A stretch of DNA of 59,103 nt from an uncultured Gammaproteobacteria bacterium (GTDB taxonomy: Bacteria > Patescibacteriota > Microgenomatia > UBA12405). The notes below the pieces were generated by a model. The model was given only the letters and a program-made list of their open reading frames with translations, searched no databases and was not told where the DNA came from. Below, piece after piece: positions 13,259-57,194 of this stretch. Numbering within the stretch: the stretch's first letter is position 1; every line of letters starts with the position of its first letter. The stretch covers positions 1-59,103 of the forward strand of contig CAZOQV010000003.1 of NCBI GenBank assembly GCA_964582365.1, in the 5' to 3' direction. The translations under genes were made by a program, and so were the position numbers.

Positions 13259-13265
13259 TTAATTT

Positions 13266-15582: not shown

Positions 15583-15595
15583 AAACAGTTCCTCT

Positions 15596-15647
15596 ATATT
15601 TACAACTTTATAACTTGATGAACTTTACAACTTGATAAACTATAATC
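15596..15647 (+). repeat. CTTTAYAAC/CTTGATRAAC 8-9-nt tandem array ending in TATAAT, 7 nt before the acetyltransferase ATG
   Basis: Sequence atatttacaactttataacttgatgaactttacaacttgataaactataatc. Confidence 0.75.
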
Positions 15648-15653
15648 ATATAT

Positions 15654-16247: not shown

Positions 16248-16248
16248 T

Positions 16249-21259: not shown

Positions 21260-21310
21260 GACAGTCTAGTATCTTCCAATATCTTCTAATATATTCTAAA
21301 ATAATCTAAT
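21251..21310 (+). repeat. 10-nt-period direct repeats (consensus ATNTTCTAAT) filling the spacer up to the fic ATG
   Basis: Units tatctataag acagtctagt ATCTTCCAAT ATCTTCTAAT ATATTCTAAA ATAATCTAAT. The last unit contains the A and T of the start codon (21309-21311). Confidence 0.7.
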
Positions 21311-22205: not shown

Positions 22206-22218
22206 AATAAAACAAAAC

Positions 22219-23364
22219 ATGAAACATATTGTTATTGACGCTCGTCTCTATGGCCCAAAACACACCGGTATTGGTCGCTACACCAAAAATCTTCTCAAAG
22301 CCTTAGTTAAACTCTCTGATTTTAAAAATTATAAATTTACTTTAATAATTTATAAAGAATTAGAAAAAGATGTTAAAAAAGATTTAGGTGATAATTTTAA
22401 TTATGTTACCACCAACATTAAACATTATTCCCTAAAAGAACAACTTTTTTTACCTTTTATTCTTTATAAATTGCACCCAGATTTAGTCCATTTCACTCAT
22501 TTTAATAAACCAATTCTTTATTTTAAAAAATCAGTCGTCACTATTCATGACTTAATTAAACATTTCTCTAAAGGCAAAGAAACCACCACTAAAAGTCAAC
22601 TTTTGTACAAAATAAAATATCTTGGTTATTTAATTTTAATTCGCACCATTGTTACTCGAAATCAAATTATTGTTCCTAGTAATTTTTGGCGCGATTTTTT
22701 AATCAAAAAATATCACTTAAAAGATTCCCACGTTGTCACCACTTATGAAGCCGTCGACCCTACTTTTTTACCAAACACCAATAAAGAAGAAGTTGAAAAT
22801 TTGAAATTAGAAATTGGAAATTGGAAATTGGAAATTGGAAATTATATTATTTATACGGGTAATCTTTATCCCCATAAAAATATTATTGTTGTTTTAAAAG
22901 CTCTTAAAAAATTATCCAACATAAAACTAAAAATTATTTGTGCTCGTGATTTTTTTAGTGAAAAATTATCAAAACAGATTAACCATCTTAAAATTAAAGA
23001 CCAAGTTGAATTTCTTGGTTATCTCGACGATCAACAATTTAAAGAAGTTTATCAACAGGCTTTAGCCCTTGTTCATCCATCTTTAATGGAAGGTTTCAGT
23101 TTAACTGGTCTTGAAGCTATGGCTTTAAATTGTCCGGTTGTATCGTCAAATTCAAGTTGTCTTCCAGAAATTTACGGTGATTCAGTTCTCTATTTTGACC
23201 CTCAAAATCCAGACGATTTAGTTGAAAAAATTAACCAACTAAAAAACAATTTAGGCCTACGCCAAAAATTAATTGATCTCGGACATCAACAACTCAAAAA
23301 ATATTCCTGGAATAAAACTGCCGAACAAAGCATGACTGTTTACAAGAAAATATTAGAAATTTGA
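22219..23364 (+). CDS. glycosyltransferase family 4 with internal and terminal TTRGAAA arrays
   Basis: HIVIDARLYGPKHTGIGRY N-terminus. C-terminal VHPSLMEGFSLTGLEAMALNCPVVSSNSSCLPEIYG. Confidence 0.85.
   Translation: MKHIVIDARLYGPKHTGIGRYTKNLLKALVKLSDFKNYKFTLIIYKELEKDVKKDLGDNFNYVTTNIKHYSLKEQLFLPFILYKLHPDLVHFTHFNKPILYFKKSVVTIHDLIKHFSKGKETTTKSQLLYKIKYLGYLILIRTIVTRNQIIVPSNFWRDFLIKKYHLKDSHVVTTYEAVDPTFLPNTNKEEVENLKLEIGNWKLEIGNYIIYTGNLYPHKNIIVVLKALKKLSNIKLKIICARDFFSEKLSKQINHLKIKDQVEFLGYLDDQQFKEVYQQALALVHPSLMEGFSLTGLEAMALNCPVVSSNSSCLPEIYGDSVLYFDPQNPDDLVEKINQLKNNLGLRQKLIDLGHQQLKKYSWNKTAEQSMTVYKKILEI
22793..22841 (+). repeat. TTRGAAA heptamer array (7 units, four perfect TTGGAAA), in-frame in GT4
   Basis: Units TTGAAAA TTTGAAA TTAGAAA, then TTGGAAA x4, read as ENLKLEIGNWKLEIGN. 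It lies directly before the first strand (YIIYTGNL) of the C-terminal domain. Confidence 0.92.
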
Positions 23365-23387
23365 AATTAAAAATTTGAAATTAAAAA
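23353..23387 (+). repeat. TTRGAAA-family array containing both the TGA stop of one GT4 and the TTG start of the next
   Basis: Units TTAGAAA TTTGAAA TTAAAAA TTTGAAA TTAAAAA. Stop at 23362-23364 and start at 23375-23377 sit in successive copies of the 14-nt unit TTTGAAATTAAAAA. Confidence 0.85.
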
Positions 23388-24460
23388 TCGCATTATTTTA
23401 TGATTGGTTAAATCAGTGGGGCGGAGCTGAAAAGGTTTTACTTGATCTAATTAAAATTTATCCTGAAGCACCAATCTATACTTTAATTTACGACCCTAAA
23501 AAAACCAAATGGCTTCCCAAAAAAATTAAAATTATTCCCTCTGTTTTAGACAAATTATCTCTTTCAAAAAAAAATTCTATTCTTCAAACTCCATTTTATG
23601 CCCTATCTTTAAAACAATTTGATTTTTCTCAATATGACATTGTTATCTCTACTACTCAAGTAATTGGTCATAGTCTCTCTATTCCAAAAAACACTCTTTA
23701 CGTCTGTTATTTTCACAATATTAATCGTTATATTTATCAAACTCCACCTGGTTTCAAACTTTTAAAACCACTTCTAAATCTATATCAAAAAATTGATTTT
23801 AGTTATGGCCAAAAACCAGATTATTTATTTTGTAATTCCAATACTGTTAAAAAAAGAATTGCCGATGCTTATAAAAGAGAAGCTAAGACAATTTATCCTG
23901 GCATTGACACTTCATTTTTTGTTCCCTCAAAAAACAATTCTAATGAAAAATATTTTTTAATAGTATCTCGTCTTGTTTCTCACAAAAAAATTGATCTTGC
24001 TATTCAAGCCTGTCATCAATTAAATCAAAAATTATATATTGTCGGCGCTGGTCGTGACAAAAATAAATTAAATAATTTAATTAAATCTCTCAAAGATCCC
24101 AATATTAAACTATTAGGCCAAGTCGACAATAATAAATTATTAAATCTTTATCAAGAATGTTTGGCTTTAATCTGCCCTCAGCTAGAAGATTTCGGATTAA
24201 CTCCGATTGAAGCTCAATCATGTGGCAAACCAGTTATTGCCTACGATAAAGGGGGATTAACCGAAACAGTTATTAACGATAAAACCGGAATTTTATTCAA
24301 TCATCAAACTGTCGAAAGTTTAACTTCTGCTCTTAAAAAATTTAATCCAAATAATTTTTCCAAAGAGACTTGTCAAAAAAATGCAAAAAAATTTTCTAAT
24401 CAAAACTTTATGCTAAACTTTAAAAAAGAAATAGATCTCCTATGGAAAAACCATCAATAA
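23375..24460 (+). CDS. glycosyltransferase family 4
   Basis: KIALFYDWLNQWGGAEKVL N-terminus. C-terminal ICPQLEDFGLTPIEAQSCGKPVIAYDKGGLTETV. TTG start. Confidence 0.8.
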   Translation: MKLKIALFYDWLNQWGGAEKVLLDLIKIYPEAPIYTLIYDPKKTKWLPKKIKIIPSVLDKLSLSKKNSILQTPFYALSLKQFDFSQYDIVISTTQVIGHSLSIPKNTLYVCYFHNINRYIYQTPPGFKLLKPLLNLYQKIDFSYGQKPDYLFCNSNTVKKRIADAYKREAKTIYPGIDTSFFVPSKNNSNEKYFLIVSRLVSHKKIDLAIQACHQLNQKLYIVGAGRDKNKLNNLIKSLKDPNIKLLGQVDNNKLLNLYQECLALICPQLEDFGLTPIEAQSCGKPVIAYDKGGLTETVINDKTGILFNHQTVESLTSALKKFNPNNFSKETCQKNAKKFSNQNFMLNFKKEIDLLWKNHQ

Positions 24461-25530
24461 ATTACTATCATCTTATCCTCTGTGGTGGAACCGGGCCCCG
24501 ACTTTGGCCTCTCTCTCGAAAAAGTAAACCAAAACAATTTCTTTCCTTATTAGACAAACAATCTCTTTTGGTACAAACCATCAAAAGATCACAACGAGTA
24601 GTTGATAGTAAAAATATTTACATAGTTTCCAACAAAAATTATATTGATCAAATAATTAAAATTGCTCAAGAATTTAAGATAACCAAAAATATAATCATTG
24701 AGCCAGAAAAGAAAAATACCGCCTTGGCCATTCTTTACGCCACTATTAAAATTAAACAAATAGATCCAAATGCTGTTATCAGTACTTTTCCTTCAGATCA
24801 CTACATCAGAAATGTTGCTCGTTTTAAAACAACTCTTAACCAGGCCAAAACAATTGCTCATTTAACTGATGATATTGTTACCATTGGAATTAAGCCAACC
24901 AAACCAGAAACTTCTTATGGTTATATTTGTCCCGACGAAAAAATCGAAAATTATTATCATGTTTCTAAATTTATTGAAAAACCAGATCTTCAAAACGCTC
25001 AAAAATTAATTGATAAAAATGCTTTTTGGAATTCTGGTATTTATACTTTTTCTATTTCTGCTTTACTTTCTGAATTTAAAAAATTACAGCCAGAATATTT
25101 TAAGATTGCCATGGATTTGGAAAAAAACTTAGATTATCCCCAAAAAATAGCTCAAATTTATCAAGACTCACCAGATCTTTCAATTGATCATGCTATTTCT
25201 GAAAAAACATCAAAAATGTCCATGGTTCCGGCTAGTTTTGATTGGACTGATATTGGAGAATGGGAAACTATTTTTGCCAGTTCACCTAAAAAGAAGGATA
25301 GTCACGCCATTATTGATCATAAAACTCAATATTTAAGTGTAAATTCACAAGGCTGTTTAATTTCTGGATCAGATAAAAAAATTATTGGTTTAGTCGGAGT
25401 TAATAACTTAGCCGTCATCGACACTCCAGATGGATTATTAATTTGTAATTTGGACTCTAGTTATAACGTCAGAGATTTAGTAAGCTTGATGGTGAAAAAC
25501 AAAAAATACAAAAAATATTTTTTAAACTAA
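24442..25530 (+). CDS. manC: mannose-1-phosphate guanylyltransferase (NDP-sugar pyrophosphorylase)
   Basis: ILCGGTGPRLWPLSR nucleotide-binding loop, PEKKNTA, FPSDHYI, YGYI and the WNSGIY motif. Confidence 0.8.
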   Translation: MEKPSINYYHLILCGGTGPRLWPLSRKSKPKQFLSLLDKQSLLVQTIKRSQRVVDSKNIYIVSNKNYIDQIIKIAQEFKITKNIIIEPEKKNTALAILYATIKIKQIDPNAVISTFPSDHYIRNVARFKTTLNQAKTIAHLTDDIVTIGIKPTKPETSYGYICPDEKIENYYHVSKFIEKPDLQNAQKLIDKNAFWNSGIYTFSISALLSEFKKLQPEYFKIAMDLEKNLDYPQKIAQIYQDSPDLSIDHAISEKTSKMSMVPASFDWTDIGEWETIFASSPKKKDSHAIIDHKTQYLSVNSQGCLISGSDKKIIGLVGVNNLAVIDTPDGLLICNLDSSYNVRDLVSLMVKNKKYKKYFLN

Positions 25531-26169
25531 ATGAAAAAAAAATTATTCAAAATCTTTAAAAGAACTATTGATATTATAGGGTCATTAACTCTTCTTATTC
25601 TGTTTTTTCCAATCATGTTGATCACCATGATTCTAATAAAAATAAGTTCACCTGGTCCTATTTTTTTCAAACAAAAAAGAGTTGGTAAAGATAATCAACC
25701 ATTTTGGATGTATAAATTTCGCTCTATGTACACTGGTGATAATGATAAAAGATTAAAAGAAAATTATCCCGAACTTTGGAAAAAATATAAAGATTGTGGT
25801 TGGAAATTAGAAATGTCTGAAGATCCTCGTATTACTCCAATTGGTAAAAAAATTAGATCACTAACCATCGACGAATTCCCTCAATTAATCAATGTTTTAA
25901 AAGGGGACATGAGTCTAGTTGGTCCTAGAGCTTACCGAGAAGAAGAACTTCAAGAACAAGAAAAAAAATATCCCAAAACCGAAAAATATATCAAAATCAT
26001 TCGATCAGCCAAACCTGGCATCACTGGTGTTTGGCAAACTTCAGGTCGAAATGATATTTCTTTTGAACAACGAGCTAAAATGGACGCCAATTATATTCAA
26101 AAGCAATCTTTTACCGAAGAAATCCTAATTATACTTAGGACACCAACATCCATGTTGTCACGTTGGTAA
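25531..26169 (+). CDS. undecaprenyl-phosphate sugar phosphotransferase (bacterial sugar transferase family, short form)
   Basis: IFFKQKRVGKDNQPFWMYKFRSM, DPRITPIGKKIRSLTIDEFPQLINVLKGDMSLVGPR, PGITGVWQTSGRND. Confidence 0.9.
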   Translation: MKKKLFKIFKRTIDIIGSLTLLILFFPIMLITMILIKISSPGPIFFKQKRVGKDNQPFWMYKFRSMYTGDNDKRLKENYPELWKKYKDCGWKLEMSEDPRITPIGKKIRSLTIDEFPQLINVLKGDMSLVGPRAYREEELQEQEKKYPKTEKYIKIIRSAKPGITGVWQTSGRNDISFEQRAKMDANYIQKQSFTEEILIILRTPTSMLSRW

Positions 26170-33563: not shown

Positions 33564-34865
33564 ATGGTTCAAAAATTAAAAAACATCTTCATTCATTTAC
33601 CAAAAAGTTTTTTTTGCAACTTAAAATATGGTTTCCCTAGCCGAAAATTAACTCTAATTGGCGTTACTGGAACAGACGGTAAAACTACAACTTGTACTTT
33701 AGTCAACGAAATATTAAAAAAATCTGGTTTAAAAACCGGATTAATTACCACCATTGGCGCTAAAATTGGTGACAAAGAAATTGAAACCGGTTTTCATACC
33801 ACCACTCCAGATCCATCTGTTCTTCAAAAAATTTTGGCCGATATGGTCAAGAGTGGAATAACCCATGTTGTGTGCGAAGTCACTTCTCATGCTCTCGATC
33901 AACATCGTTTTTGGGGTTGTAACTTTAAGGTCGCCGGTATCACCAACACTTCTCATGAACATCTTGATTATCACAAAAAAATAGAAACATATATTAAGAC
34001 TAAAGCTAAACTTTTTAATCAATCCGAAACCGCTATTTTGAATAAAGATGACCAGTCTTTCGAAATTATAAAAAAACAAATAAAAATTCCCTATAAAACA
34101 TTTAGTATTAACAAAACTTCCGATTACCAAGCTCAAAAAATAAAACTTGGAACTGATAATCTCAGTTTTTGCGTTAATGATCAGAAATTTATCACTGATA
34201 GTAATTATGAATACCAAGTCTATAATATTCTTTTAGCCACCGCTATTTGCTATAAATTGGGAATTAAATCCGAAACAATTCAACAAGTAATAGAACATTT
34301 TCCAGAGACCAAGGGTCGTCGCGAAGAATTATCAAATGATTTTAAGTTTAGAACTATTATCGATTTTGCCCATACTCCTAATGCTCTTAATGCTTCACTT
34401 TCTTCTCTTAAAAAAACTAATCAAGGGAAAATTATTATTATTTTTGGAGCCACCGGTGGTCGAGACCACAGTAAACGACCGATAATGGGTAATATTGTTT
34501 CAAAATTAGCTGATATTGCCATAATTACTGCTGACGACACTAGAAATGAAAAAATTAAAGATATTAACAAACAAATCATTAGTGGTATTGATCCTGAAAA
34601 ATCAGAATTAATTGATTACCAAGAAACAAAAACTAAAAAACAAATTCAAAATATTTCAGAATTATCTAAGAAAAAATTTATTTATTTTGATATTCCAAAT
34701 CGTCAAGACGCCTTTAATTTAGCCATCAAATTAGCAAAACCAAACGATGTTGTTATTGCTTGCGGCAAAGGTCATGAAAATACTATTCTTCACGGACGCA
34801 CCGAATATCCTTGGTCCGAAGCCGAAGCTTTTAGAACCGCTTTTCGATTTCGAAAAATAAAATAA
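33564..34865 (+). CDS. murE: Mur ligase, MurE-like (UDP-MurNAc-dipeptide: diamino acid ligase), short N-terminus
   Basis: GVTGTDGKTTT P-loop, EVTSHALDQHR, NTSHEHLDYH, DFAHTPNAL, ADDTRNE. Position after ftsI. Confidence 0.75.
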   Translation: MVQKLKNIFIHLPKSFFCNLKYGFPSRKLTLIGVTGTDGKTTTCTLVNEILKKSGLKTGLITTIGAKIGDKEIETGFHTTTPDPSVLQKILADMVKSGITHVVCEVTSHALDQHRFWGCNFKVAGITNTSHEHLDYHKKIETYIKTKAKLFNQSETAILNKDDQSFEIIKKQIKIPYKTFSINKTSDYQAQKIKLGTDNLSFCVNDQKFITDSNYEYQVYNILLATAICYKLGIKSETIQQVIEHFPETKGRREELSNDFKFRTIIDFAHTPNALNASLSSLKKTNQGKIIIIFGATGGRDHSKRPIMGNIVSKLADIAIITADDTRNEKIKDINKQIISGIDPEKSELIDYQETKTKKQIQNISELSKKKFIYFDIPNRQDAFNLAIKLAKPNDVVIACGKGHENTILHGRTEYPWSEAEAFRTAFRFRKIK

Positions 34866-34866
34866 T

Positions 34867-35457
34867 ATGACTCAGTTTAATCTAAAGAATACTGACAATA
34901 TTGATCAAAATTATCAAAATGGTCTTCTTCCTCAACGAAATGATAAAAATTTGTTTTATTCTCAAACTAGTTGTCGTTCCAATTTAACTGATTTTAAATT
35001 AAGTTCTGAAAATCGCCGAATTTTAAGAAAAACTGAAGAATTCACCTTTGAAAAAATTGCTCTTAAAGATTTCAATTATGATTTAAAAACTCAAAAAGAA
35101 ATTTTTAATTGGATAAAAAAACTTGGATGGGATTATCCTACCAGTTCGGTTAAAAATGTTTTTACAAATCATATTTTTAATTATCTATATGTATGGAAAG
35201 ATAAGCAAAATAATATCATTGCTTATTCTGTTTGTTATTTTTCAGACCATATTAGTCATATCGCCTATGTTTTTTATAATCCAGAATTAGCCCATGGAAA
35301 TTTACCCATTCGTTTAGTTTTACAAACCATTATTGATAGCCACGAATCAGGTTTAACTTATTGTTATTTAGGTCGTTTTTCTAATGATAATGGTTTTTAT
35401 AAAAGAAACATGCCCGGCTTTGAATACTTTAACAATAATCAATGGCAAACTTTATAA
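34867..35457 (+). CDS. arginyltransferase (ATE_C) / Bpt-like aminoacyl-tRNA--protein transferase homologue
   Basis: F-x-x-S-x-x-x-RR-x-L-RK segment (FKLSSENRRILRK), SHIAYVFYNPEL and YCYLGRFSNDNGFYKRNMPGFEYFNNNQW mirror the ATE/Bpt C-terminal motifs (SavY.FYDP, YLGY....M.YK..F.P.E). Confidence 0.6.
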   Translation: MTQFNLKNTDNIDQNYQNGLLPQRNDKNLFYSQTSCRSNLTDFKLSSENRRILRKTEEFTFEKIALKDFNYDLKTQKEIFNWIKKLGWDYPTSSVKNVFTNHIFNYLYVWKDKQNNIIAYSVCYFSDHISHIAYVFYNPELAHGNLPIRLVLQTIIDSHESGLTYCYLGRFSNDNGFYKRNMPGFEYFNNNQWQTL

Positions 35458-38254: not shown

Positions 38255-39289
38255 ATGCCTCACTTATATTTAGGTCTACTTCTTTTTTCTTTTTTAATTA
38301 CCAGCATTCTGGTTGTTCCTTTTATCAATCTTCTCTATAAACTAAAGTTCCAACGACAAATCCAAAAAACCACTGATTTTCAAAATAAAAGAACCGCTAT
38401 TTTTGATAAATTTCACAACACCAAAAGTGGAACACCAATAGGCGGGGGAATATTAATCATCTCCGTCGTTCTTATTCTTTTTATAATTCTTTCTCCAATC
38501 ATTAAATTTTCTCGAATTTTTGTTTCTTCTAATTACCAAATAAACAAAGAAATCTTTATTCTTTTCTTCACTTTTATAAGTTTCGGATTATTAGGACTTT
38601 ACGATGATGTTTTAAAATTCTTTGGCTTCAAAAAAACCGGTTTCTTTGGTTTAAGAATGTCACATAAATTTATCTTGCAAATAATAATTTCTTTAATTAT
38701 TTCTTTAATGATTTATTTTCAATTAGGAATCAATTTTATTTATATTCCTTTCTTTGGTGCTATCAAATTAGGCTTATTTTACATCCCCATTTCTACCCTT
38801 ATTATCGCTGGTTTTGCAAATTTCTTTAATATTTCCGATGGTCTCGATGGTTTATCTTGTGGGCTTTTAATGATTTCTCTATTTGCTTTTTGGATTTTAG
38901 CTAGCACTTCCATGGATACTATTATTTCCTCTTTTCTAGCCCTTTGGATCGGAGCCTTAATTGCCTTTCTTTATTTCAATGTTTATCCAGCCAGAATCTG
39001 GCTTGGCGATGTCGGTTCACTTTCATTTGGAGCTACTTTTGCTGTTATCGCCTTACTCTTAGGGAAAATAGTTCCTTTAATCATTGTGGGGTTTCCTTTT
39101 ATTGTCGAAGGCATGTCTAGTGCTATTCAATTAGTTAGTAAAAAATATTTCAAGAAAAAAGTTTTTCCTGCTGCTCCTCTTCATTTAACTCTACAAAGTA
39201 TTGGTTGGGAAGAACCAAAAATTGTCTTCCGTGCCTGGCTAGCTGGAATTATATTAGCTATTTTTGGACTATGGTTGGGAATAAATTAG
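38255..39289 (+). CDS. mraY: phospho-N-acetylmuramoyl-pentapeptide transferase
   Basis: 10-TM protein with GTPIGGG, YDDVLKF, NFFNISDGLDGL, YPARIWLGDVGS and APLHLTLQ motifs. Confidence 0.9.
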   Translation: MPHLYLGLLLFSFLITSILVVPFINLLYKLKFQRQIQKTTDFQNKRTAIFDKFHNTKSGTPIGGGILIISVVLILFIILSPIIKFSRIFVSSNYQINKEIFILFFTFISFGLLGLYDDVLKFFGFKKTGFFGLRMSHKFILQIIISLIISLMIYFQLGINFIYIPFFGAIKLGLFYIPISTLIIAGFANFFNISDGLDGLSCGLLMISLFAFWILASTSMDTIISSFLALWIGALIAFLYFNVYPARIWLGDVGSLSFGATFAVIALLLGKIVPLIIVGFPFIVEGMSSAIQLVSKKYFKKKVFPAAPLHLTLQSIGWEEPKIVFRAWLAGIILAIFGLWLGIN

Positions 39290-39822
39290 ATTTATTAAAA
39301 TTAGAGATAAGTTATTATCTCGATTTACCTTACAGTAAAAATATCCTTAAAGACGGAAAAATAATTAAGGAAAAATTTTTAGGCGGAAAAGGCAATTGTC
39401 GTCAGATTGCCACTGAAACCATTCGTCTGGCTCAAAAACAAAATTTAGATTTAACTAAATTAACCAATCCAGAATTTTACAATTTCCAAAAAAAGAACCA
39501 TCTTGGTATTGATTGTTCTGGCCTTGCCGTTCAATTATTAAATTTTTATTTCGAAACTAAATTAAATCCTCGTAAAATTTCGGCCAACATGCTCACTTCA
39601 GTTCCACTTTCAAAAGAAATAAAACCAAATGAAATTAAAACAGGGGATTTAATTCGTCAAAAAGATGGCCACCATGTTCTGTTTATTGTCGAAAAACAAG
39701 GCAATATCATCACTTATGTTGATAGCTCTCGTGAAGGCAGGGGAGTTAAATATGGAACCACCGACATCACTGATAAAAATTTCCACCACAACGGATTTTT
39801 TAGAATTAACAAAAACATGTAG
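39271..39822 (+). CDS. NlpC/P60-like cysteine peptidase (putative cell-wall hydrolase)
   Basis: Start set to ATG 39271 (19-nt overlap with mraY). GIDCSGLAVQLL (catalytic Cys context) and GDLIRQKDGHHVLFIV (His context). Confidence 0.6.
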   Translation: MVGNKLDLLKLEISYYLDLPYSKNILKDGKIIKEKFLGGKGNCRQIATETIRLAQKQNLDLTKLTNPEFYNFQKKNHLGIDCSGLAVQLLNFYFETKLNPRKISANMLTSVPLSKEIKPNEIKTGDLIRQKDGHHVLFIVEKQGNIITYVDSSREGRGVKYGTTDITDKNFHHNGFFRINKNM

Positions 39823-39846
39823 AGACGCCACACATGACGTCTCTAC
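39819..39846. terminator. 9-bp stem / 10-nt loop hairpin between convergent genes (candidate bidirectional terminator)
   Basis: GTAGAGACG-ccacacatga-CGTCTCTAC. On the minus strand it is followed by AUGUUUUUG. The stem includes the TAG stop of the NlpC/P60 gene. Confidence 0.45.
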
Positions 39847-39853
39847 TGCGAAA

Positions 39854-40012
39854 CTATTTTTCTTCAATCAATTCTCGATATTTTAGTGGATTTAAAGACA
39901 AAATTTCCACTTCAGTCCCACATTCAGGACATTCAATGATATCTCCCACTGCAGTGGCCTCTATTAATTCAATTTCTATTTTGCAATCTGGACAAATAAC
40001 TTTTTCGTTCAT
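39854..40012 (-). CDS. LysW-like zinc-ribbon protein (amino-group carrier protein family-like), 52 aa; absent from the supplied ORF track
   Basis: Hand translation: MNEKVICPDCKIEIELIEATAVGDIIECPECGTEVEILSLNPLKYRELIEEK. CPxC-x17-CPxCG spacing, G-[DE]-h-h-x-C and E-h-E-h-x-x-L-x-P-L follow the LysW/ArgW pattern. The tail is acidic but lacks EDWGE. Confidence 0.55.
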   Translation of the reverse strand: MNEKVICPDCKIEIELIEATAVGDIIECPECGTEVEILSLNPLKYRELIEEK

Positions 40013-40052
40013 GTTTTATTAAAATTAATAACTAGTATAATTAACCTATTAT

Positions 40053-40823
40053 ATGACAAGCACACCTTTAATTAAATTAGAAAATGTTTATCTCAAAAGG
40101 GAAGACTTGAACGAAACTGGTTCCGCCAAAGATCGAGCCATGATTTCTCAAATCGAAAATCTAATAAAACAAGGTTTTAAGACTGCTGTCATTTCTAGCA
40201 CTGGCAATGCTGCTATTTCTGCCGCCCATTTTTGTAAACTCAGCCAAATCGATTTAACTATTTTTGTTTCTCCCAAAATCGATCAAAATAAGCTCAACTT
40301 ACTTAAAAAAAATGGTTGCCAAATTTTTATTTCTGATCAACCCATCAGTGAATCTATAAAATTTTCTAAAAAAAATCAGGCCTATCTTCTCCGTCAATCT
40401 ACTGACCCCAGTGCTTTAATTGGTTATCAAAAAATTGGTCCAGAATTAATAAATCAATTGCCTCAAACTACCAGTATTTTTGTTCCAGTTGGCAGTGGCA
40501 CCACTCTTTTGGGAATTTCTCAATCTTTACCAACAATAAAAATTTTTGCCGTTAAACCAGCAGATACAACTTTAACCGATGCTTTAACTGTTAAATACCA
40601 ACCTCTAAAAAATAAAATTATTTCTGCCGTCAAAAATTCTAAAGGTTCAGAACTAATTATTCAAAACGATGAAATTTTAGAAGCTCATAAAATATTAGAA
40701 CTAAACAAGGTTAAAACTTCTCTTGAAAGTGCCTTAGCCTTTGCTGGATTTAAAAAAGCTCTTAAAAACAACCTAAATATAGGTAATTATCCCGTCGTCA
40801 TTTTAACCGGATGTCAAAGATAA
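40053..40823 (+). CDS. fold-type II PLP-dependent enzyme (threonine synthase / cysteine synthase / serine racemase superfamily), short form
   Basis: LKREDLNETGSAKDR (PLP-lysine motif), SSTGNAA, and PVGSGTT (phosphate-binding loop). 256 aa. Confidence 0.7.
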   Translation: MTSTPLIKLENVYLKREDLNETGSAKDRAMISQIENLIKQGFKTAVISSTGNAAISAAHFCKLSQIDLTIFVSPKIDQNKLNLLKKNGCQIFISDQPISESIKFSKKNQAYLLRQSTDPSALIGYQKIGPELINQLPQTTSIFVPVGSGTTLLGISQSLPTIKIFAVKPADTTLTDALTVKYQPLKNKIISAVKNSKGSELIIQNDEILEAHKILELNKVKTSLESALAFAGFKKALKNNLNIGNYPVVILTGCQR

Positions 40824-41917
40824 ATTTAACCACCATTATTAATCAATCGTCTTATATTTTCTTTTTTTTGGTGGTCGATAAATTTTTAGATATTGATCTT
40901 CCTGAACTTAAAAATTTTGAAAAAATTTATCTTTCCGATTATCCATCTATCGCAGAAAAAAATAGTGGAAAATTACTTTCCCACCCAAAAGTTATAGACT
41001 ATATTTGTCAAAAATCTAAAAAAAATAATCTTACTCCTGTCATTATTCCTTTTAAACCATCTGCCAAAGTCGATTTTTTGTGTCAAAAAAATAATTGGAT
41101 AAATGCTAGCAATTCTGCTCCAATTAACCGTTTTTTGGAAGATAAAATTAAATTTACTAAACTTAGTCAGAAATACAAATTACCAATTATTCCTTCTTCG
41201 ATAGATACTTTTTCTCAAAAAAATTTTTTAAAATATCAAAAAAAATATACTTCCAAATTAGTTCTTCAAACTCATTTTGGTTGGGCAGGAAATAGTACCT
41301 TTTCTGCCGAACATTGGGACGAAATAAAAGATAAAATTACTCAAGGCGTCATTGTCAAATACACTCCTTTTATTAGTTCTTCCTACTCCCTTTTAAACAA
41401 TTGCTGTCTTACCAAATACGGCTTAATTCAAAGTCCACCAGCTCTTCAATATACTGGTATTTCACCCTATACTCAAAATCCTTTTACTACCGTCGGTCGT
41501 CAATGGCCTTCAATGGCTCCTCAAAAAATAATCAACGACATTAATAAAATAACTGAAAAATTTGGCAAAATTTTACCAGAAATTGGATACAAGGGGTTTT
41601 TTGGTCTTGATTTTTTAATTAATAAAAACAAAGTCTATTTACTAGAATGCAACCCTCGACTTACTGCTTCTTTTAGTTTTTACACTCAGATAGAGTTAAC
41701 CCAAAACATTACTCCTCTTTTTTATTTTCATTTAGCCGAATTTTTAAAACTTGATTATAAAATTAATTTAAAACAAGAAAAATCAAGATTTAACAATAAA
41801 AAAATTATTGGTTCCGAGTTGACTCCCAAAAATAAAGACAATTATACTTGTCAAAAATTAAATTTTGACTATCCTTTGTCAAAAAACACCAATCCTATTT
41901 CTATCAAAATTAAATGA
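40811..41917 (+). CDS. ATP-grasp family ligase
   Basis: C-terminal GFFGLDFLINKNKVYLLECNPRLTAS is the ATP-grasp Mg/ATP motif. It overlaps the PLP gene by 13 nt and forms ATGA with ftsW. Confidence 0.7.
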   Translation: MSKINLTTIINQSSYIFFFLVVDKFLDIDLPELKNFEKIYLSDYPSIAEKNSGKLLSHPKVIDYICQKSKKNNLTPVIIPFKPSAKVDFLCQKNNWINASNSAPINRFLEDKIKFTKLSQKYKLPIIPSSIDTFSQKNFLKYQKKYTSKLVLQTHFGWAGNSTFSAEHWDEIKDKITQGVIVKYTPFISSSYSLLNNCCLTKYGLIQSPPALQYTGISPYTQNPFTTVGRQWPSMAPQKIINDINKITEKFGKILPEIGYKGFFGLDFLINKNKVYLLECNPRLTASFSFYTQIELTQNITPLFYFHLAEFLKLDYKINLKQEKSRFNNKKIIGSELTPKNKDNYTCQKLNFDYPLSKNTNPISIKIK

Positions 41918-43083
41918 AAGAAAATAAATCCCCCTTATTATTCTTAGTTTTCAGCTTGGTTTTTGTCGGTTTAATTTTTATTTCCATTTCTTCATTAAGC
42001 GAAGCCAATTCTTTAATTGGCGATAAATTTTTTTATATTAAAAAACAAGTATTTTGGATTATTTTGGGATTAATTTGTTTATACATCACTTCAAAAATAA
42101 ACATTAAAACCATCAAAAAGTTTTCTTTTATTTTCTACGCTATTTCCATTTTGGGTTTAATTTTAGTTTTAATTCCAAGCCTGGGCAATGAAGCTCTTGG
42201 TGCTAGACGTTGGTTAAATTTAGGTTTTACTAGTATTCAGCCTTCTGAAATTTTAAAATTAAGTTCCATTATTTATTTTTCTTTTCTTTTTTCTAAACCA
42301 GAAAATCACAACATTAAAAATCTAATTTTTTACCTTGGAATCCCATTTGTCTTAATTATCATTCAACCAAATTTAAGCACTGCCATTTTAATTTCGGCCA
42401 TTGTTAGTTCAATTTATTATATTTCTGGTGGTGACATTATGCCTCTTTTTGGTATTATTTGTGTTTTTTTAGTAGTCAGTGTTCCCTTAGTCTTTTTTTC
42501 ACCCTATCGTTCCGCCAGATTAAAAACTTTTTTAGAACCACAACAAAACCAAGAAACTTCGTCATATCACAGTAATCAAATAATTTTATCCCTTTCTTCT
42601 GGTGGTTTTTTTGGAAAAGGATTTGCCAACTCCGATCAAAAATACAAATTCCTTCCTAAAATTTCTACAGACTCTATTCTTGCGGTCATTGGTGAAGAAA
42701 TTGGATTTATTGGAATTTTTGCAGTCTTATTAATTTATCTTTCTTTAATAAATTATCTTTTGAAATTTTCTCAAACAATCGAAGATCCTTTTCAAAGTCT
42801 TTTAGTTTCTGGTAGCGCCTGTCTAATTGCTTATCAAAGCTTGATTAATATTTCTGCTATTGCTGCTCTCATTCCTTTAACCGGTGTTCCTTTACCGTTT
42901 ATTTCCTATGGTGGTTCTTCACTAGTCACTCTTTTTATTGTTATTGGGCTGGTCAGAAATGTCGAAAAAAATCAAAAACTGTTATACTTAAAGAGTGATC
43001 TCAATCAAACCAAAAAAGACGGTAATCATCACCGGAACTCACTTGACTCCGGCCACCGAACTCATTCGTCAATTGAAAAATGA
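41914..43083 (+). CDS. ftsW: SEDS-family peptidoglycan polymerase FtsW
   Basis: 10-TM protein. RRWLNLGFTSIQPSEILK, FLEPQQN..TSSYHSNQIILSLSSGGFFGKG, TDSILAVIGEEIGFIG and PLPFISYGGSS. Confidence 0.85.
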   Translation: MKENKSPLLFLVFSLVFVGLIFISISSLSEANSLIGDKFFYIKKQVFWIILGLICLYITSKINIKTIKKFSFIFYAISILGLILVLIPSLGNEALGARRWLNLGFTSIQPSEILKLSSIIYFSFLFSKPENHNIKNLIFYLGIPFVLIIIQPNLSTAILISAIVSSIYYISGGDIMPLFGIICVFLVVSVPLVFFSPYRSARLKTFLEPQQNQETSSYHSNQIILSLSSGGFFGKGFANSDQKYKFLPKISTDSILAVIGEEIGFIGIFAVLLIYLSLINYLLKFSQTIEDPFQSLLVSGSACLIAYQSLINISAIAALIPLTGVPLPFISYGGSSLVTLFIVIGLVRNVEKNQKLLYLKSDLNQTKKDGNHHRNSLDSGHRTHSSIEK

Positions 43084-49761: not shown

Positions 49762-50757
49762 ATGCCAAAATCATCATGGTTACCAACCCTAATTAGCTTG
49801 GTAGTCCTTTTCTGTATTAACATTTTGATGGTTAGTTCTGTTGCTCCTGGTTTAGTTGGAAAACAATTAATAGCCTGGGGTTTAGGATTAATCTTGTTTT
49901 TTATTGGTAAACAAATAAATCTAAAACAACTAAATTCCTACAAATGGCCAATTTTTATAATTTGTTGTATTGCTCTTCTTTTGCCAATTGTTTTAAATTT
50001 TTCCACTCGGGGTTCTCATCGTTGGATTTATATCGCCGGGAGAACCATTCAACCATCAGAATTTGTTAAACCTATGCTTATGTCTTTTTTGGCTAACACT
50101 AATTTTCCTTTTTTAATATTTATTCCCATTTTCATTATTATGGCTCAACCAGATTTAGGCAGTGCCATTTCTGTTTTTTTTCTAATTATTCCTGTAATTT
50201 TTTATAATAAAAAGTTACTCAAATTTTTTATAATTGCCGGATTGTGCTTAATTTTAGCTTCTCCATTAATCTATAAATATGTTCTTCATGATTATCAACA
50301 AAAGAGAATTACCACTTTTTTAAACCCTAAAGACAACCCTTTAAACGAAGGTTACAACGTAATTCAATCTCAAATTGCCATCGGCTCTGGTGGCTTTTTT
50401 GGTAAAGGTTATAAAAAAGGGACTCAGGGTCAATTATTATTTTTACCCGAAAAACACACCGATTTTATGTTTGCCACCACTGCTGAAGAATTGGGTTTTA
50501 TTGGGATATTTATTGTTTTATTTGCTTATTTTTTATTACTCAACGCTCTTTTTAACAAAGCCTTTTCTACTAAAAATCGTCCTCTTTTTATTTTTACCCT
50601 TGGCATAGCTATTCAAATTTGGATGCAAACTTTTGTTAATATTGGAATGAACATCGGGATTTTCCCTGTTACTGGAATTCCTCTTCCTTTTATTTCTGTT
50701 GGAGGTTCATCTTTAATGGCTTCGCTTTTCTCTCTTGGCATTGTTTATTCTTCATAA
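49762..50757 (+). CDS. rodA: SEDS-family protein RodA/FtsW paralogue
   Basis: RTIQPSEFVKP, QPDLGSA, NVIQSQIAIGSGGFFGKG, TDFMFATTAEELGFIG and PLPFISVGGSS. Confidence 0.8.
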   Translation: MPKSSWLPTLISLVVLFCINILMVSSVAPGLVGKQLIAWGLGLILFFIGKQINLKQLNSYKWPIFIICCIALLLPIVLNFSTRGSHRWIYIAGRTIQPSEFVKPMLMSFLANTNFPFLIFIPIFIIMAQPDLGSAISVFFLIIPVIFYNKKLLKFFIIAGLCLILASPLIYKYVLHDYQQKRITTFLNPKDNPLNEGYNVIQSQIAIGSGGFFGKGYKKGTQGQLLFLPEKHTDFMFATTAEELGFIGIFIVLFAYFLLLNALFNKAFSTKNRPLFIFTLGIAIQIWMQTFVNIGMNIGIFPVTGIPLPFISVGGSSLMASLFSLGIVYSS

Positions 50758-55567: not shown

Positions 55568-56428
55568 ATGTCAATAGTTAAAAAAATATCATTAATAATA
55601 GTCAACTATAATTCTTCTAAAAATACTAATGATTTATTATTGTCGGTTAAAAAATATATTTATAAAAAAATCGACGAAGTCATAATTATCGATAATAATT
55701 CTAAAGATGTTAAAGATTTGATTGTTAACGATCCAAAAATAAAATTAATTAAAAATAATAAAAACTATGGATTTGCCAAAGCTGTTAATCAAGGAATAGA
55801 CAAATCAAAAAACGATTTTATTTTTTTACTAAACCCAGATACTATTATCATTAATAATTCAATTTTAAAAACTATTGAATTAGTAATAAATGATAAAAAT
55901 ATTGGTGTAATAGGCGGAAAAATAAAATACGAATATAAAAAAATATTTACAGCAAACAACACACCAACATTCTTAACCGGTCTTTTTGAATTCACTAACC
56001 TAAAAAAAATGTTACCAAATAATAAATACACTCTAGATTTTTGGCCAGAAAAAAATCAAAAAATAACACAATCACTTGAAGTTTCGGGGATTTGTGGTGC
56101 CTATATGATTTTTAGAAAATACGATAAAATAGGCAATAAAAATTACTTTGATGAAAATTATTTCTTATATTTAGAAGATTTAGATTTTTGTTTAAGTATA
56201 AAATCCAAAGGTTTTAAGGTTATCTTTGATCCAAGATCAGAAATATTTCATATAGGCGGAGCTAGTAGTGATAATAAATATCATATGTCTCTAAATTATT
56301 GGTATAAATCCAGAAAAATATTTTTTAAAAAACATTTAAATAAGGTTGAAGGTATAATATTAAATATAATATTTACAACAGAAGAACTATTTCTAAAAGC
56401 ACGACTTTTAATTAAAAATCATGATTAA
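55568..56428 (+). CDS. glycosyltransferase family 2
   Basis: ISLIIVNYNS, IIIDNNSKD, NYGFAKAVNQG, FLYLEDLDF. Confidence 0.85.
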   Translation: MSIVKKISLIIVNYNSSKNTNDLLLSVKKYIYKKIDEVIIIDNNSKDVKDLIVNDPKIKLIKNNKNYGFAKAVNQGIDKSKNDFIFLLNPDTIIINNSILKTIELVINDKNIGVIGGKIKYEYKKIFTANNTPTFLTGLFEFTNLKKMLPNNKYTLDFWPEKNQKITQSLEVSGICGAYMIFRKYDKIGNKNYFDENYFLYLEDLDFCLSIKSKGFKVIFDPRSEIFHIGGASSDNKYHMSLNYWYKSRKIFFKKHLNKVEGIILNIIFTTEELFLKARLLIKNHD

Positions 56429-57194
56429 ACACCGACACATCTCCATTCTCCTTCTCACCCACAACGAAGAATTAAACCTTCAAAAAAACTGGAACTGGCT
56501 TGACAAAGCCAAAAGAATTAATGAAATTATTGTTATTGACGATAACTCTGACGATGAAACCATTGAAATATTAAAGAAACTCGAAACAAAAAGAATTAAG
56601 GTCAAAATTTTTGAAAGGGGATTATTCAATAATTTTGCCGAACAACGCAATTTTGGTATTACCAAAACCACCAATAATTGGATTCTTTGGCTGGACGCCG
56701 ACGAAAAACCAAGCAACAATTTAATCCGATTTTTAAATCATATCGATAATCTTGAATATAAAAATTATGCCTTTAAAAGAAAAGATGTTTTCATTAATCA
56801 TGAATTAAATCACGGCGAAAACGCCAATCAATACTTTTTAAGATTTTTTAATAAAAGACACGGTTGCTTTACTGGTGCTGTTCATGAAATCTGGCAAACT
56901 TCAAAAGAAGTTAAATCCAAAAAAATTCACATTCACCATTATTCTCACCAATCATTAAAATCTTTTATCAAAAAAATAAATTTTTATTCAGATATTCGGG
57001 CTCAAGAATTGTACGATCAAAATCAAAAAAGCAGTTTATTTCAAATAATTTTTTATCCACTAGGCAAATTTATTCAAGATTATTTCTTTAAACTTGGATT
57101 TTTAGATGGAACTCCGGGAATTATTATGGCTTTAGGTATGAGTTTTCATTCATTTTTAGTTCGAGCTAAATTATGGCAATTGTCACACCAATAA
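56421..57194 (+). CDS. glycosyltransferase family 2 (WaaE/KdtX-like short form)
   Basis: ISILLLTHNEE, IVIDDNSDDET, NFAEQRNFG, ILWLDADE. Confidence 0.8.
   Translation: MIKHRHISILLLTHNEELNLQKNWNWLDKAKRINEIIVIDDNSDDETIEILKKLETKRIKVKIFERGLFNNFAEQRNFGITKTTNNWILWLDADEKPSNNLIRFLNHIDNLEYKNYAFKRKDVFINHELNHGENANQYFLRFFNKRHGCFTGAVHEIWQTSKEVKSKKIHIHHYSHQSLKSFIKKINFYSDIRAQELYDQNQKSSLFQIIFYPLGKFIQDYFFKLGFLDGTPGIIMALGMSFHSFLVRAKLWQLSHQ

Follow-up and report, generated by a model that had tools for sequence, protein, structure and literature searches.

What occupies the position between mraY and ftsW, where murD normally sits, and does it serve the same step of wall synthesis? In the window, the whole 59,103-nt stretch of DNA analyzed here, this interval consists of four genes that encode an NlpC/P60-like protein, a LysW-fold zinc ribbon, a PLP enzyme and an ATP-grasp protein (Table 1). 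The layout described in an earlier note was reproduced throughout: the NlpC/P60-like gene overlaps mraY by 19 nt, the PLP gene overlaps the ATP-grasp gene by 13 nt, and ftsW starts inside the end of the ATP-grasp gene at an ATGA junction. The zinc-ribbon protein (MNEKVICPDCKIEIELIEATAVGDIIECPECGTEVEILSLNPLKYRELIEEK) is encoded by the sole minus-strand gene, every other credible gene between 10574 and 52315 being on the plus strand, and a 40-nt spacer separates it from the divergent PLP gene. The ATP-grasp start at 40811 is backed by conservation of the N-terminus. A Pfam scan of 56 ORFs, which include all credible genes of the 59-kb window, revealed no murD, murF, ddl, murB, alr or murI, and no lysX, lysZ, lysY, lysJ or lysK. 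The MurE of this locus lacks the UDP-binding N-terminal domain.

Table 1. Features of the mraY-ftsW interval and its flanks.
Feature	Coordinates	Strand	Remarks
mraY	38255..39289	+	Upstream flank; orthologues with Glycos_transf_4; shares its last 19 nt with the P60-like gene
Divergent NlpC/P60-like cysteine peptidase/amidase, 183 aa	39271..39822	+	Pfam NLPC_P60 below cut-off
Hairpin of 12 bp, then T-rich run	39819..39846	-	Intrinsic-terminator-like, just 3' of the small gene
Acidic LysW-fold zinc-ribbon carrier-like protein, 52 aa	39854..40012	-	Pfam PF21344; CPDC...CPEC, tail ...ELIEEK
Divergent spacer, 40 nt	40013..40052		TATAAT box on + strand, position conserved
Fold-type II PLP enzyme, short (256 aa)	40053..40823	+	PALP 137 bits
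ATP-grasp carboxylate-amine ligase, 368 aa, uncharacterised family	40811..41917	+	ATP-grasp_3 35 bits
ftsW	41914..43083	+	Downstream flank; FTSW_RODA_SPOVE 303 bits; start overlaps ATP-grasp stop (ATGA)

The order, strands and overlaps of the four genes are identical throughout about 75 relatives at species level, which belong to Shapirobacteria and other Microgenomates, and the succession mraY-P60-carrier(-)-PLP-grasp-ftsW recurs unchanged in each GTDB species-representative locus spanning the region. The overlap with mraY is kept in 72 of 73 related loci, and in most relatives the ATP-grasp and ftsW genes overlap by 4-14 nt. All four genes are passed on together as a conserved unit within the dcw cluster, where the earlier note had placed them. 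All 76 readable relatives have an intact small ORF, the sole apparent exception (L082) being masked by Ns; its entropy at codon positions 1, 2 and 3 is 0.56, 0.23 and 1.33, respectively, and the pooled pN/pS is 0.17 (pS is saturated). Purifying selection acts on the small protein, and its intactness, codon-position entropy, pN/pS and EEK tails place the observation beyond chance.

A terminator scan found one site, with 0.7 expected, and this site lies between the convergent P60-like and carrier genes; in most relatives the two genes have a convergent overlap of ~18 nt instead of the hairpin gap. The divergent spacers listed for 75 relatives measure 14-69 nt (14-86 nt when taken from gene coordinates), and 66 of the 75 carry a TAnAAT-like box. 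In the window, CTATTAT directly 5' of the PLP ATG reads as TATAAT on the minus strand. A scan for the promoter consensus alone gave no excess over chance, and the TATAAT boxes are putative promoter elements.

Sequence and fold agree that the small protein is LysW-like, as had been claimed. It matches Zn_ribbon_LysW in Pfam (PF21344) with 43.2 bits against a gathering score of 27, whereas its TIGR01206 score of 38.2 bits falls short of the cut-off, 53.2. When its AlphaFold model is compared with the PDB, LysW structures fill the six best places (TM 0.69-0.75), and the first non-LysW match has an E-value of about 0.7. The protein is acidic, with 13 acidic against 5 basic residues. The EDWGE tail, which we verified in Thermus and Thermococcus LysW, is missing as reported, and an almost invariant -E-E-K takes its place: EEK ends 118 of 120 database homologues, [E/D]-E-K ends all seven deep-lineage versions, and the terminal Lys and the Glu at -2 are invariant in 76/76 species loci. 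Public databases annotate it as "lysine biosynthesis protein LysW", very probably in error.

The P60-like protein matches NLPC_P60 with 20.7-21.1 bits (E 3e-4), below the Pfam cut-off of 23; among 41 orthologues, 27 reach E<=0.01. When the family profile is aligned with E. coli Spr/MepS, the two catalytic residues, Cys (GIDCSG) and His (GxHV), line up; C82 and H135 are invariant. No signal peptide or TM segment is obvious by eye. The PLP enzyme, which matches PALP in Pfam, finds its best NCBIfam matches in archaeal-type ThrC families, far under the cut-offs. Profile comparison against the PDB (Thr dehydratase 1e-22, ThrC 4e-22, Ser racemase 1e-17, CysK 1e-16) indicates that it is about equally related to threonine synthase and to Thr/Ser dehydratases/racemases. 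Its invariant motifs are GS-x-K-DR with the PLP lysine, the carboxylate loop SS-T/S-GNA, and GSG.

The ligase matches ATP-grasp_3 with 35.1 bits (cut-off 23.2), and its best family is PRK06524 (113 bits, E 1e-32, against a cut-off of 684). Its AlphaFold model (pLDDT 94) has biotin carboxylase, PurK and PurT as fold neighbours, at TM of about 0.6 and 13% identity. The earlier comparison with LysX/ArgX (RimK-type) ligases did not hold, as no RimK/LysX match was obtained and the relation is at superfamily level only. The enzyme is not a Ddl either, scoring 16 bits against cut-offs of 245-310, and a canonical ddl stands in the module's cluster in one relative (L091). The family comprises 2053 cluster representatives at E<=1e-3, among which are fusions with PALP, NlpC/P60 and GNAT.

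In other lineages the three module enzymes are fused pairwise, and three kinds of fusion link the parts of the module: PLP with ATP-grasp (P0297 and P0394), ATP-grasp with NlpC/P60, and NlpC/P60 with MurD (P0434, SH3_16+NlpC/P60+MurD). The second kind involves a canonical NlpC/P60 in P0296, P0317, P0348 and P0387, and in P0382 a C-terminal domain of the same divergent P60 subfamily as here (hhalign 99.6%, E 9e-25).

The module is physically linked to murD or sits in its slot. It directly adjoins murD in three other lineages of ultrasmall (CPR) bacteria (L085, L086 and L093), where murD converges on the carrier gene, which is divergent from the following PLP and grasp(-P60) genes; the adjoining murD is bona fide (TIGR01087, 258 and 254 bits, cut-off 212). 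In L090, the order murF-mraY-module-ftsW puts the module at the canonical murD position. These loci lend comparative backing to the earlier claim that the module takes the murD slot. The accompanying claim that murD, murF, ddl and alr are absent is true of this window, but murF and ddl do occur in related clusters, the murF-like gene that accompanies the module scoring below the NCBIfam cut-off. murD itself is not in the cluster, in this window or in the dcw loci of close relatives. Because murD and the module stand side by side elsewhere, a role for the module as partner of the MurD step is likelier than one as a substitute for MurD.

That the module makes or ligates an amino acid of the stem peptide, as first suggested, is plausible, and it probably makes or delivers a wall-peptide amino acid, with D-glutamate as our best guess. 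We tentatively propose, as the best of the readings considered, that the four genes form a single carrier-protein pathway serving the MurD step, in which the second residue, D-glutamate, is added; we found no published description of such a route. The constant gene order, the fusions, the linkage to murD and the acidic LysW-fold carrier with its invariant terminal Lys speak for this reading. The ATP-grasp enzyme would perform the loading step, activating a carboxyl group and tying the amino acid to the carrier tail. The likeliest cargo would be L-glutamate, joined through its side-chain carboxyl, most probably to the ε-amino group of the invariant terminal lysine, so that the α-amino and α-carboxyl groups of the glutamate would stay free. 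The invariant carboxylate loop SS(T/S)GNA of the PLP enzyme suggests a substrate with a free α-carboxylate, such as side-chain-tethered Glu or Asp. The ThrC-like PLP enzyme would carry out the conversion, acting on the free α centre, most likely by L to D inversion. The NlpC/P60 amidase would then release only the converted product and regenerate the carrier, so that L-Glu and ATP would yield D-Glu for MurD. The presence of ligase and amidase in a single polypeptide would be understandable if the tethered group were altered between loading and release. The ATP-grasp ligases PylC and Aslfm acylate the ε-amine of Lys, γ-D-Glu-Lys/DAP is the classical bond of the NlpC/P60 family and is cleaved by YkfC-type SH3+NlpC/P60 enzymes, and MurD2/MurL provides an ATP-dependent L-to-D-Glu route in peptidoglycan synthesis.

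Several points speak against this reading. The PLP lysine motif S-x-K-D-R is ThrC/CysK-like rather than of the Ser/Asp racemase group, and we know of no fold-II glutamate racemase. NlpC/P60 enzymes normally cut γ-D-Glu from the α-amine of Lys/DAP, not the ε-amine. The ATP-grasp protein is unrelated to LysX/ArgX beyond the superfamily, and murD is missing from the cluster here and in close relatives. Moreover, a reference title listed in PMC11974145 points to an ordinary glutamate racemase in at least some CPR (Saccharibacteria), so a special route would not be needed by CPR in general.

A rather unlikely alternative follows the classical logic of LysW, in which the ATP-grasp enzyme would join the α-amino group of a substrate to a tail carboxylate (the terminal α-COOH or the Glu at -2). 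The ThrC/CysK-like enzyme would perform β- or γ-replacement with the tethered side chain as nucleophile, and the peptidase would release a modified or diamino acid (lanthionine, cystathionine or DAP-like) for the stem peptide. The LysW fold, the acidic carrier and the invariant Glu at -2 fit this; the S-x-K-D-R motif and the ThrC/SbnA/CysK matches suit replacement chemistry, CysO-CysM-Mec+ and SbnA are precedents, NlpC/P60 enzymes of the MepS type can also act as LD-carboxypeptidases, and P0296 matches NF008096. However, the module is linked to murD and not murE, the need for a terminal Lys is left unexplained, the ligase is not LysX/RimK-like, and synthesis of O-phosphoserine or O-phosphohomoserine is not expected in CPR.

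It is improbable that the module has replaced MurD in Microgenomates, the stronger reading of the earlier note, with the ATP-grasp enzyme and carrier adding the second residue to UDP-MurNAc-L-Ala after loss of murD. All related dcw loci lack murD, whereas each of murA, B, C, E, F and ddl may occur in the cluster; the module fills the exact slot, its P60-like gene takes the place that murD has in L085, L086 and L093, loss of the murD part of a fusion such as P0434 could yield the present layout, and the truncated MurE hints at an unorthodox pathway. Nevertheless, the orthologous enzymes that neighbour murD in three lineages cannot do MurD's job there, absence from a cluster differs from absence from a genome, and the PLP enzyme and peptidase are given no role.

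We hold it equally improbable that the module directly decorates the precursor side chain or cross-bridge, as the Aslfm/Racfm pair of Enterococcus faecium does. The PLP enzyme would racemise free Asp, Ser or Ala, the ligase would attach the product to the ε-amine of the stem Lys or the α-carboxyl of D-Glu, the peptidase would edit, and the small protein, its Glu-Lys-COOH end resembling the stem tripeptide, would be a regulator, decoy or chaperone. Translational coupling of the ATP-grasp and PLP genes, their fusion elsewhere, the dcw location and the likeness of the tail to γ-D-Glu-L-Lys agree with it, but it explains neither the specific LysW fold, nor the carrier beside the enzymes in every lineage, nor the ligase-amidase fusions and murD adjacency.

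Slightly less probable again is a cycle that reversibly tags the C-terminus of a small regulatory protein, whose tail state would tune MurD, MraY or division, in the manner of tubulin tyrosine ligase/vasohibin, RimK-S6 or glutathionylspermidine synthetase/amidase. It would account for the ligase-amidase fusions, the invariant tail and the opposite-strand gene, whose promoter-like box and the one for the downstream operon overlap, which suggests a regulatory arrangement; yet it leaves no role for the PLP enzyme, ligase-fused in some lineages, and the LysW fold is known from metabolic carriers only. Ordinary LysW-dependent lysine/arginine biosynthesis, which the NCBI and JGI labels of homologues and the Pfam domain match would suggest, is effectively refuted by the sub-threshold TIGR01206 score, EEK in place of EDWGE, the absence of LysX, LysZ, LysY, LysJ and LysK from the window and every related locus, and a ligase that is not of RimK/LysX type.

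LysW-type carriers are known to carry α-aminoadipate or glutamate (PMC12998189). The tethering Glu of known LysW is invariant, and the terminal Lys of the present protein is likewise invariant. In every LysW carrier that has been characterised, a carboxylate serves as the tether, whereas the carrier-tethered D-glutamate route proposed here would have reverse polarity, because the tether would be a lysine amino group. In BtrJ/BtrI/BtrK, Glu is tethered by its γ-carboxyl for the action of a PLP enzyme, a precedent for the γ-tethered Glu and PLP enzyme of our proposal.

A four-gene module encoding an NlpC/P60-like peptidase, a LysW-fold zinc-ribbon protein (the carrier), a PLP enzyme and an ATP-grasp ligase sits between mraY and ftsW in the window, which is low-GC DNA (~30%) of a CPR/Patescibacteria member whose closest homologues carry the label Candidatus Shapirobacteria. 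The four genes are a unit under selection, physically linked to murD or its slot. The coordinates, gene overlaps and 40-nt divergent spacer claimed in the earlier note were all verified against the ORFs and the sequence of the window. A conservation scan with one genome per GTDB species covered 80 of 111 loci encoding a relative. All loci spanning the region agree in the order mraY, P60-like, carrier (minus strand), PLP, ATP-grasp, ftsW and in the strands, and the module thus proved to be conserved in related dcw clusters. In 72 of 73 loci mraY and the P60-like gene share 19 nt, the P60-like and carrier genes in most cases overlap tail to tail, by 18 nt, and the PLP/ATP-grasp and ATP-grasp/ftsW junctions are overlaps of a few bases. 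The divergent spacer between the carrier and PLP genes ranges from 14 to 86 nt in relatives, with 48 nt or less in all but two. Insertions between the P60-like and carrier genes were seen in some relatives: an LCP (LytR_cpsA_psr) protein together with a 92-aa ORF at 7657-9022 of L065, and a peptide deformylase on the same strand as the carrier gene at 8412-8999 of L036.

Features of the window, with the four-gene module and its surroundings (L numbers denote related genomic loci)
Feature	Coordinates	Strand	Description
23S-rRNA-intervening-sequence-type protein	7924-8280	-	
Polysaccharide/glycosyltransferase cluster	10574-26169 and 55568-58249		>12 GT genes, Wzy-like proteins, sugar transferase, nucleotidyl transferase
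Fic-domain gene	21309-22205		Embedded in polysaccharide cluster
dcw cluster	31.9-46.9 kb		ftsI, murE, ATE_C-like gene, murC, murA, mraY, four-gene module, ftsW, murG, ftsQ-like, ftsA, ftsZ
Truncated MurE homologue	33564-34865	+	433 aa; N-terminal UDP-binding domain absent
Arginyl/leucyl-tRNA-protein-transferase C-terminal domain protein	34867-35457	+	196 aa; ATE_C, 25.7 bits; between murE and murC
P60-like peptidase	39271-39822	+	Module
Hairpin with T-run	39819-39846		12 bp, GC-containing; after minus-strand carrier gene
Antisense ORF	39834-40022	+	62 aa; opposite carrier gene; open here and in relatives (e.g. L036); no family match
Carrier	39854-40012	-	Module; 52 aa
Divergent spacer	40013-40055		Positionally conserved TATAAT box, + strand
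PLP enzyme	40053-40823	+	Module
ATP-grasp ligase	40811-41917	+	Module
Second SEDS protein	49762-50757	+	RodA-like, 272 bits; directly after ileS; arrangement kept in L001-L004

Besides the plus-strand box in the divergent spacer, the heptamer CTATTAT, which reads TATAAT on the minus strand, directly precedes the ATG of the PLP gene in most of 75 relatives. In this AT-rich DNA, a promoter consensus scan did not exceed chance; read solely from positional conservation, the candidate promoters of the carrier gene and of PLP-ATP-grasp-ftsW may overlap and exclude each other. The hairpin beyond the 3′ end of the carrier gene interrupts the otherwise continuous plus-strand dcw operon, at a place where most relatives have the 18-nt tail-to-tail overlap, and may also stop read-through from mraY and the P60-like gene. 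Rfam and tRNA scans found nothing within the module.

A Pfam scan of 56 ORFs, which represent every credible gene in the 59-kb window, revealed none of murD, murF, ddl, murB, alr, murI and lysXZYJK, in agreement with the earlier statement that murD, murF, ddl and alr are missing from this cluster. The mraY-ftsW interval of the window and of ~80 related loci contains no Mur ligase scoring with TIGR01087, tblastn of CPR MurD against all loci gave only murC/murE cross-matches, and a MurD profile search returned no match assignable to a Shapirobacteria genome. The MurE homologue can be aligned to the E. coli enzyme from residue ~100 onwards only, and to the S. aureus enzyme from residue 89; there is no room for an N-terminal domain because ftsI ends 13 nt upstream. 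Its orthologues have 434-443 residues, and the MurF-like proteins of the related loci L090 and L091 show the same N-terminal truncation. The ATE_C-like gene keeps its position in the relatives L001, L003 and L090, and its product may be an aminoacyl-tRNA-dependent transferase of FemX type acting on the stem peptide. Despite most genes being on the plus strand, the GC skew is negative or zero in every 2-kb interval except that of 46-48 kb (+0.012) and sums to a cumulative -4.5; for a complete Microgenomates genome, an unusual disparity in strand composition is reported (PMC7143001).

The carrier matches the Pfam family Zn_ribbon_LysW (PF21344) with 43.2 bits, above the gathering score of 27, and its AlphaFold model (pLDDT 85.5) adopts the LysW fold, the six best PDB matches being LysW chains of Thermus, Thermococcus and Sulfolobus (TM 0.69-0.75) and all matches after them having E≥0.7. 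The LysW-like nature suggested in the earlier note is thereby supported, and the protein falls below the NCBIfam equivalog cut-offs (TIGR01206, 38.2 vs 53.2 bits; NF041070, 31.2 vs 75). Its cysteines C7, C10, C28 and C31, forming two CxxC pairs, are invariant, and it is acidic, with 13 acidic versus 5 basic residues (net -8), as are the carriers of deep-branching lineages (net -3 to -14). Compared to the -EDWGE tail of Thermus and Thermococcus LysW, which had rightly been described as missing, the carrier ends in -ELIEEK. The terminal Lys and the Glu at position -2 never vary; at position -1, 71 loci have Glu and five have Gln or Thr, and the deep-lineage carriers all end in [E/D]-E-K. This invariance of the terminal residue parallels the tethering Glu in LysW. 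The small ORF is indeed conserved: it is intact in 76 of 76 readable loci, the single apparent exception being masked by Ns, and codon position 3 is the most variable (entropy 1.33 vs 0.56 and 0.23), with a pN/pS of 0.17. The antisense ORF has a pN/pS of 0.25, nearly as low as the carrier frame because wobble positions are common to both; it is disfavoured by the LysW match, CxxC pairs and conserved start and stop of the minus-strand frame, and judged by these sequence features it is probably not a gene. Genuine lysine biosynthesis was rejected on the wrong tail and the missing partner genes, as lysX/argX (RimK-type), lysZ, lysY, lysJ and lysK are found neither in the window nor in related loci.

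The best family matches of the ATP-grasp protein are PRK06524 and ATP-grasp_3 (PF02655, 35.1 bits vs a cut-off of 23.2). It has the Mg/ATP motifs of the superfamily (E-x-N and a conserved Lys): residues K112, K183, D267, E279 and N281 are invariant, and an ECNPR motif is present. Structural similarity search with the AlphaFold model (pLDDT 94) yielded 597 PDB ATP-grasp matches with E≤0.001, and the likeness to biotin carboxylase, PurK and PurT is at the fold level only (TM ~0.6, 13% identity). The proposal of a LysX/ArgX-type ligase was not borne out: Pfam and NCBIfam gave no RimK (PF08443) or LysX match at E≤0.1, and the best 50 of the 597 Foldseek matches include no chain of LysX, ArgX, RimK or Ddl, so orthology to LysX/ArgX was rejected. 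Nor does the protein score as an ordinary Ddl (TIGR01205, 16.1 bits vs 245.65; NF002527, 15.4 vs 310). A substitute for Ddl or Alr was rejected on these scores and on the canonical ddl and murF-like genes in the L090/L091 clusters. An exhaustive profile search with the ligase retrieved 2053 cluster representatives at E≤1e-3. Paralogues of 458-462 aa from other CPR genomes (L088, 9001-10377; L092, 7001-8389) stand alone just upstream of an F-type ATP synthase operon, with no carrier, PLP or P60 genes nearby, and offered no functional clue.

The PLP protein is a short PALP-domain enzyme (PF00291, 137 bits) with three invariant motifs: GS-x-K26-DR around the PLP lysine (GS-A-K-DR in the window), the carboxylate loop S48-S49-T-G51-N52-A53, intact here as SSTGNA, and S148-G149. 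The family profile is about equidistant from threonine dehydratase (1e-22), threonine synthase (4e-22), serine racemase (1e-17) and cysteine synthase (1e-16), and profile-versus-PDB comparison did not separate a ThrC-like from a racemase/dehydratase-like enzyme. The ThrC cut-offs are not reached (best models 83-100 bits vs 266-421; TIGR00260, 38.9 vs 167), and the Arg of the ThrC stretch NSxNPxR aligns, as read by eye, to a non-basic residue. In the window and in the relative L009 the protein lacks ~16 residues (consensus SxCPIAxxFDxxFxxE) that are present in most orthologues (273 aa). The peptidase belongs to a divergent subfamily with an insert of ~50 residues ahead of the catalytic Cys, and scores under the Pfam NLPC_P60 gathering threshold (20.7-21.1 vs 23 bits); 27 of its 41 orthologues match the family at E≤0.01, the best at 2.6e-6. 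The catalytic C82 and H135, within the motifs DCSG and GHV, are invariant and align with the Cys and His of E. coli Spr/MepS, and the third catalytic residue varies in position.

The three enzymes are connected with one another, and the peptidase type with MurD, by pairwise fusions. Among the 2053 ATP-grasp representatives, PLP and ATP-grasp domains are naturally fused in P0297 and P0394, ATP-grasp is fused to canonical NlpC/P60 in P0296 (Peregrinibacteria), P0317, P0348 and P0387, and P0382 joins ATP-grasp to the divergent P60 subfamily of the window type (hhalign 99.6%). The 860-aa protein P0434, found by searching with deep-lineage MurD proteins, is a fusion of SH3_16, NlpC/P60 and MurD from a high-GC organism whose composition is not CPR-like. 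In three deep-branching lineages (L085, L086 and L093), murD converges on the carrier gene, which diverges from the PLP and ATP-grasp(-P60) genes. The murD genes of L085 and L086 score above the TIGR01087 cut-off, and that of L093 is 45% identical to L086's. In the dcw-type clusters of L089-L091 and L094 the module is again between mraY and ftsW. The L090 cluster contains murC, murB, murA and a murF-like gene of 256 bits, just below the cut-off of 288.6, and the L091 cluster has a canonical ddl beside the module and a weaker murF-like gene (180 bits). Because of the murD adjacency, the mraY-ftsW placement and the co-occurrence with murF-like genes and ddl, the module is tied specifically to murD or the murD position and does not substitute for Ddl or MurF.

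We propose that the ATP-grasp ligase would load the carrier, the PLP enzyme would transform the load, and the peptidase would release it. The load presumably changes between ligation and release, because ligase and amidase sit on one chain in the fusions. We favour a dicarboxylic amino acid tethered by its side-chain carboxyl to the ε-amine of the terminal Lys, since this residue is invariant, the α-carboxylate loop of the PLP enzyme is kept, and PLP chemistry requires a free α-amine. Glutamate undergoing L-to-D conversion would be the favoured load, because LysW carriers handle glutamate and aminoadipate, NlpC/P60 enzymes classically cut γ-D-Glu-Lys/DAP, and MurD is the neighbour. We put somewhat better than even odds on the module being a carrier-mediated route that contributes to synthesis of the stem peptide. 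The full chain of carrier loading, conversion of L- to D-Glu by the PLP enzyme and release by the peptidase is a tentative reading, on the doubtful side. We think it rather unlikely that the carrier is a “carboxyl-group carrier protein” of reverse polarity, related to LysW and with Glu on the ε-amine of its invariant C-terminal Lys, forming with the ATP-grasp ligase, the PLP enzyme and a D-specific NlpC/P60 amidase an ATP-driven L-to-D Glu converter that replaces glutamate racemase in much of CPR and maybe the murD position or function in Microgenomates. To our knowledge, this polarity is without precedent. Against the D-Glu model, the PLP motif S-x-K-D-R appears nearer to ThrC/CysK than to known fold-II racemases, and an ε-linked γ-Glu-Lys is not the classical NlpC/P60 bond.

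The ThrC/CysK-like motif fits one main rival, classical amino-group-carrier chemistry with a β-replacement step, which would have to accommodate the altered tail and a ligase outside the LysX family. A true replacement of MurD in Microgenomates, another main rival, is favoured by the mraY-ftsW intervals devoid of a TIGR01087-scoring ligase and opposed by the murD genes adjoining the module in deep-branching lineages. Direct decoration of the precursor in the manner of Aslfm, a further main rival, would also use an ATP-grasp ligase on a lysine ε-amine; NCBIfam comparison revealed no specific sequence similarity of the module to Aslfm or PylC. The invariant tail also fits the remaining main rival, a regulatory tail-tagging cycle.

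Full-text literature searches turned up no work that relates LysW-like proteins to CPR bacteria or to peptidoglycan, and none on PRK06524. So far as is known, LysW-type carriers serve only lysine/arginine synthesis and a small number of secondary-metabolite routes. What we rate as new is a LysW-family carrier system that has different partners, tail and context. The reverse-polarity D-Glu model, if true, would be categorically new. A LysW-type carrier fixed in the division/cell-wall operon of an entire CPR superphylum would extend carrier biochemistry to peptidoglycan precursors, and the module would open a testable entry to how ultrasmall bacteria of minimal metabolism get non-proteinogenic wall residues. 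In public records the ligase is entered as “ATP-grasp domain-containing protein” or “biotin carboxylase” and the carrier as “lysine biosynthesis protein LysW”; thousands of genes so labelled would need re-annotation. Moreover, the conserved absence of murD from the clusters and the N-terminally truncated MurE and MurF prompt the question whether these organisms carry out the cytoplasmic steps in the orthodox way.

Known LysW-type carriers hold glutamate or α-aminoadipate (PMC12998189). The LysW/ArgW system of Thermus, Sulfolobus and Thermococcus resembles the module in its acidic zinc-ribbon carrier of ~50 aa with a flexible C-terminal tail, which has an ATP-grasp ligase and a releasing peptidase as partners. 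However, the module tail (-E-E-K) is ~4 residues shorter than that ending in -EDWGE, its ligase is outside the LysX/RimK family, and it has no kinase, reductase or aminotransferase. In addition, its modifier is a fold-II PLP enzyme, an NlpC/P60 enzyme takes the place of the releasing M20 peptidase, and its context is dcw/murD rather than lys/arg genes. The CysO-CysM-Mec+-MoeZ system of Mycobacterium tuberculosis, comprising a small carrier that acts by its C-terminus, an enzyme for activation, a fold-II PLP enzyme reacting with the carrier end and a product-freeing peptidase, has the same four roles as the module; it differs in the ubiquitin-like carrier with a Gly-Gly thiocarboxylate, adenylation instead of ATP-grasp, a JAMM metalloprotease, a cysteine product and no murD link.

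The working logic of the D-Glu model is the same as that of the butirosin pathway, in which the ATP-grasp enzyme BtrJ reportedly tethers the γ-carboxyl of Glu to the carrier BtrI, the PLP enzyme BtrK acts at the free α centre, and a γ-glutamyl-specific enzyme (BtrG) is said to trim the group at the end. The two differ: BtrI is a phosphopantetheinyl ACP with a thioester in place of a LysW fold, BtrK has another fold and is a decarboxylase, and the pathway belongs to secondary metabolism, not to the cell wall. Aslfm of Enterococcus faecium and PylC are ATP-grasp ligases that acylate a lysine ε-amino group with an amino-acid carboxyl; the gene of Aslfm, which functions in making peptidoglycan precursors, is beside that of an aspartate racemase. 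Their substrates, however, are UDP-MurNAc-pentapeptide or free lysine, no carrier protein or peptidase takes part, and the Aslfm-linked racemase is PLP-independent. MurD2/MurL of Xanthomonas, encoded next to murD, is a non-MurI, ATP-dependent route of D-Glu into the stem peptide, but epimerises UDP-MurNAc-L-Ala-L-Glu with no carrier protein, PLP enzyme or ATP-grasp. The SH3+NlpC/P60 endopeptidases of the YkfC type are cytoplasmic papain-like amidases that cut γ-D-Glu-Lys/DAP bonds; compared to them, the window peptidase is divergent in its pre-Cys insert and sub-threshold Pfam score, whereas P0434 shares the SH3_16+NlpC/P60 architecture, there joined to MurD. Similarly, glutathionylspermidine synthetase/amidase carries a ligase and a CHAP-type amidase on one chain, as do the ATP-grasp-P60 fusions.
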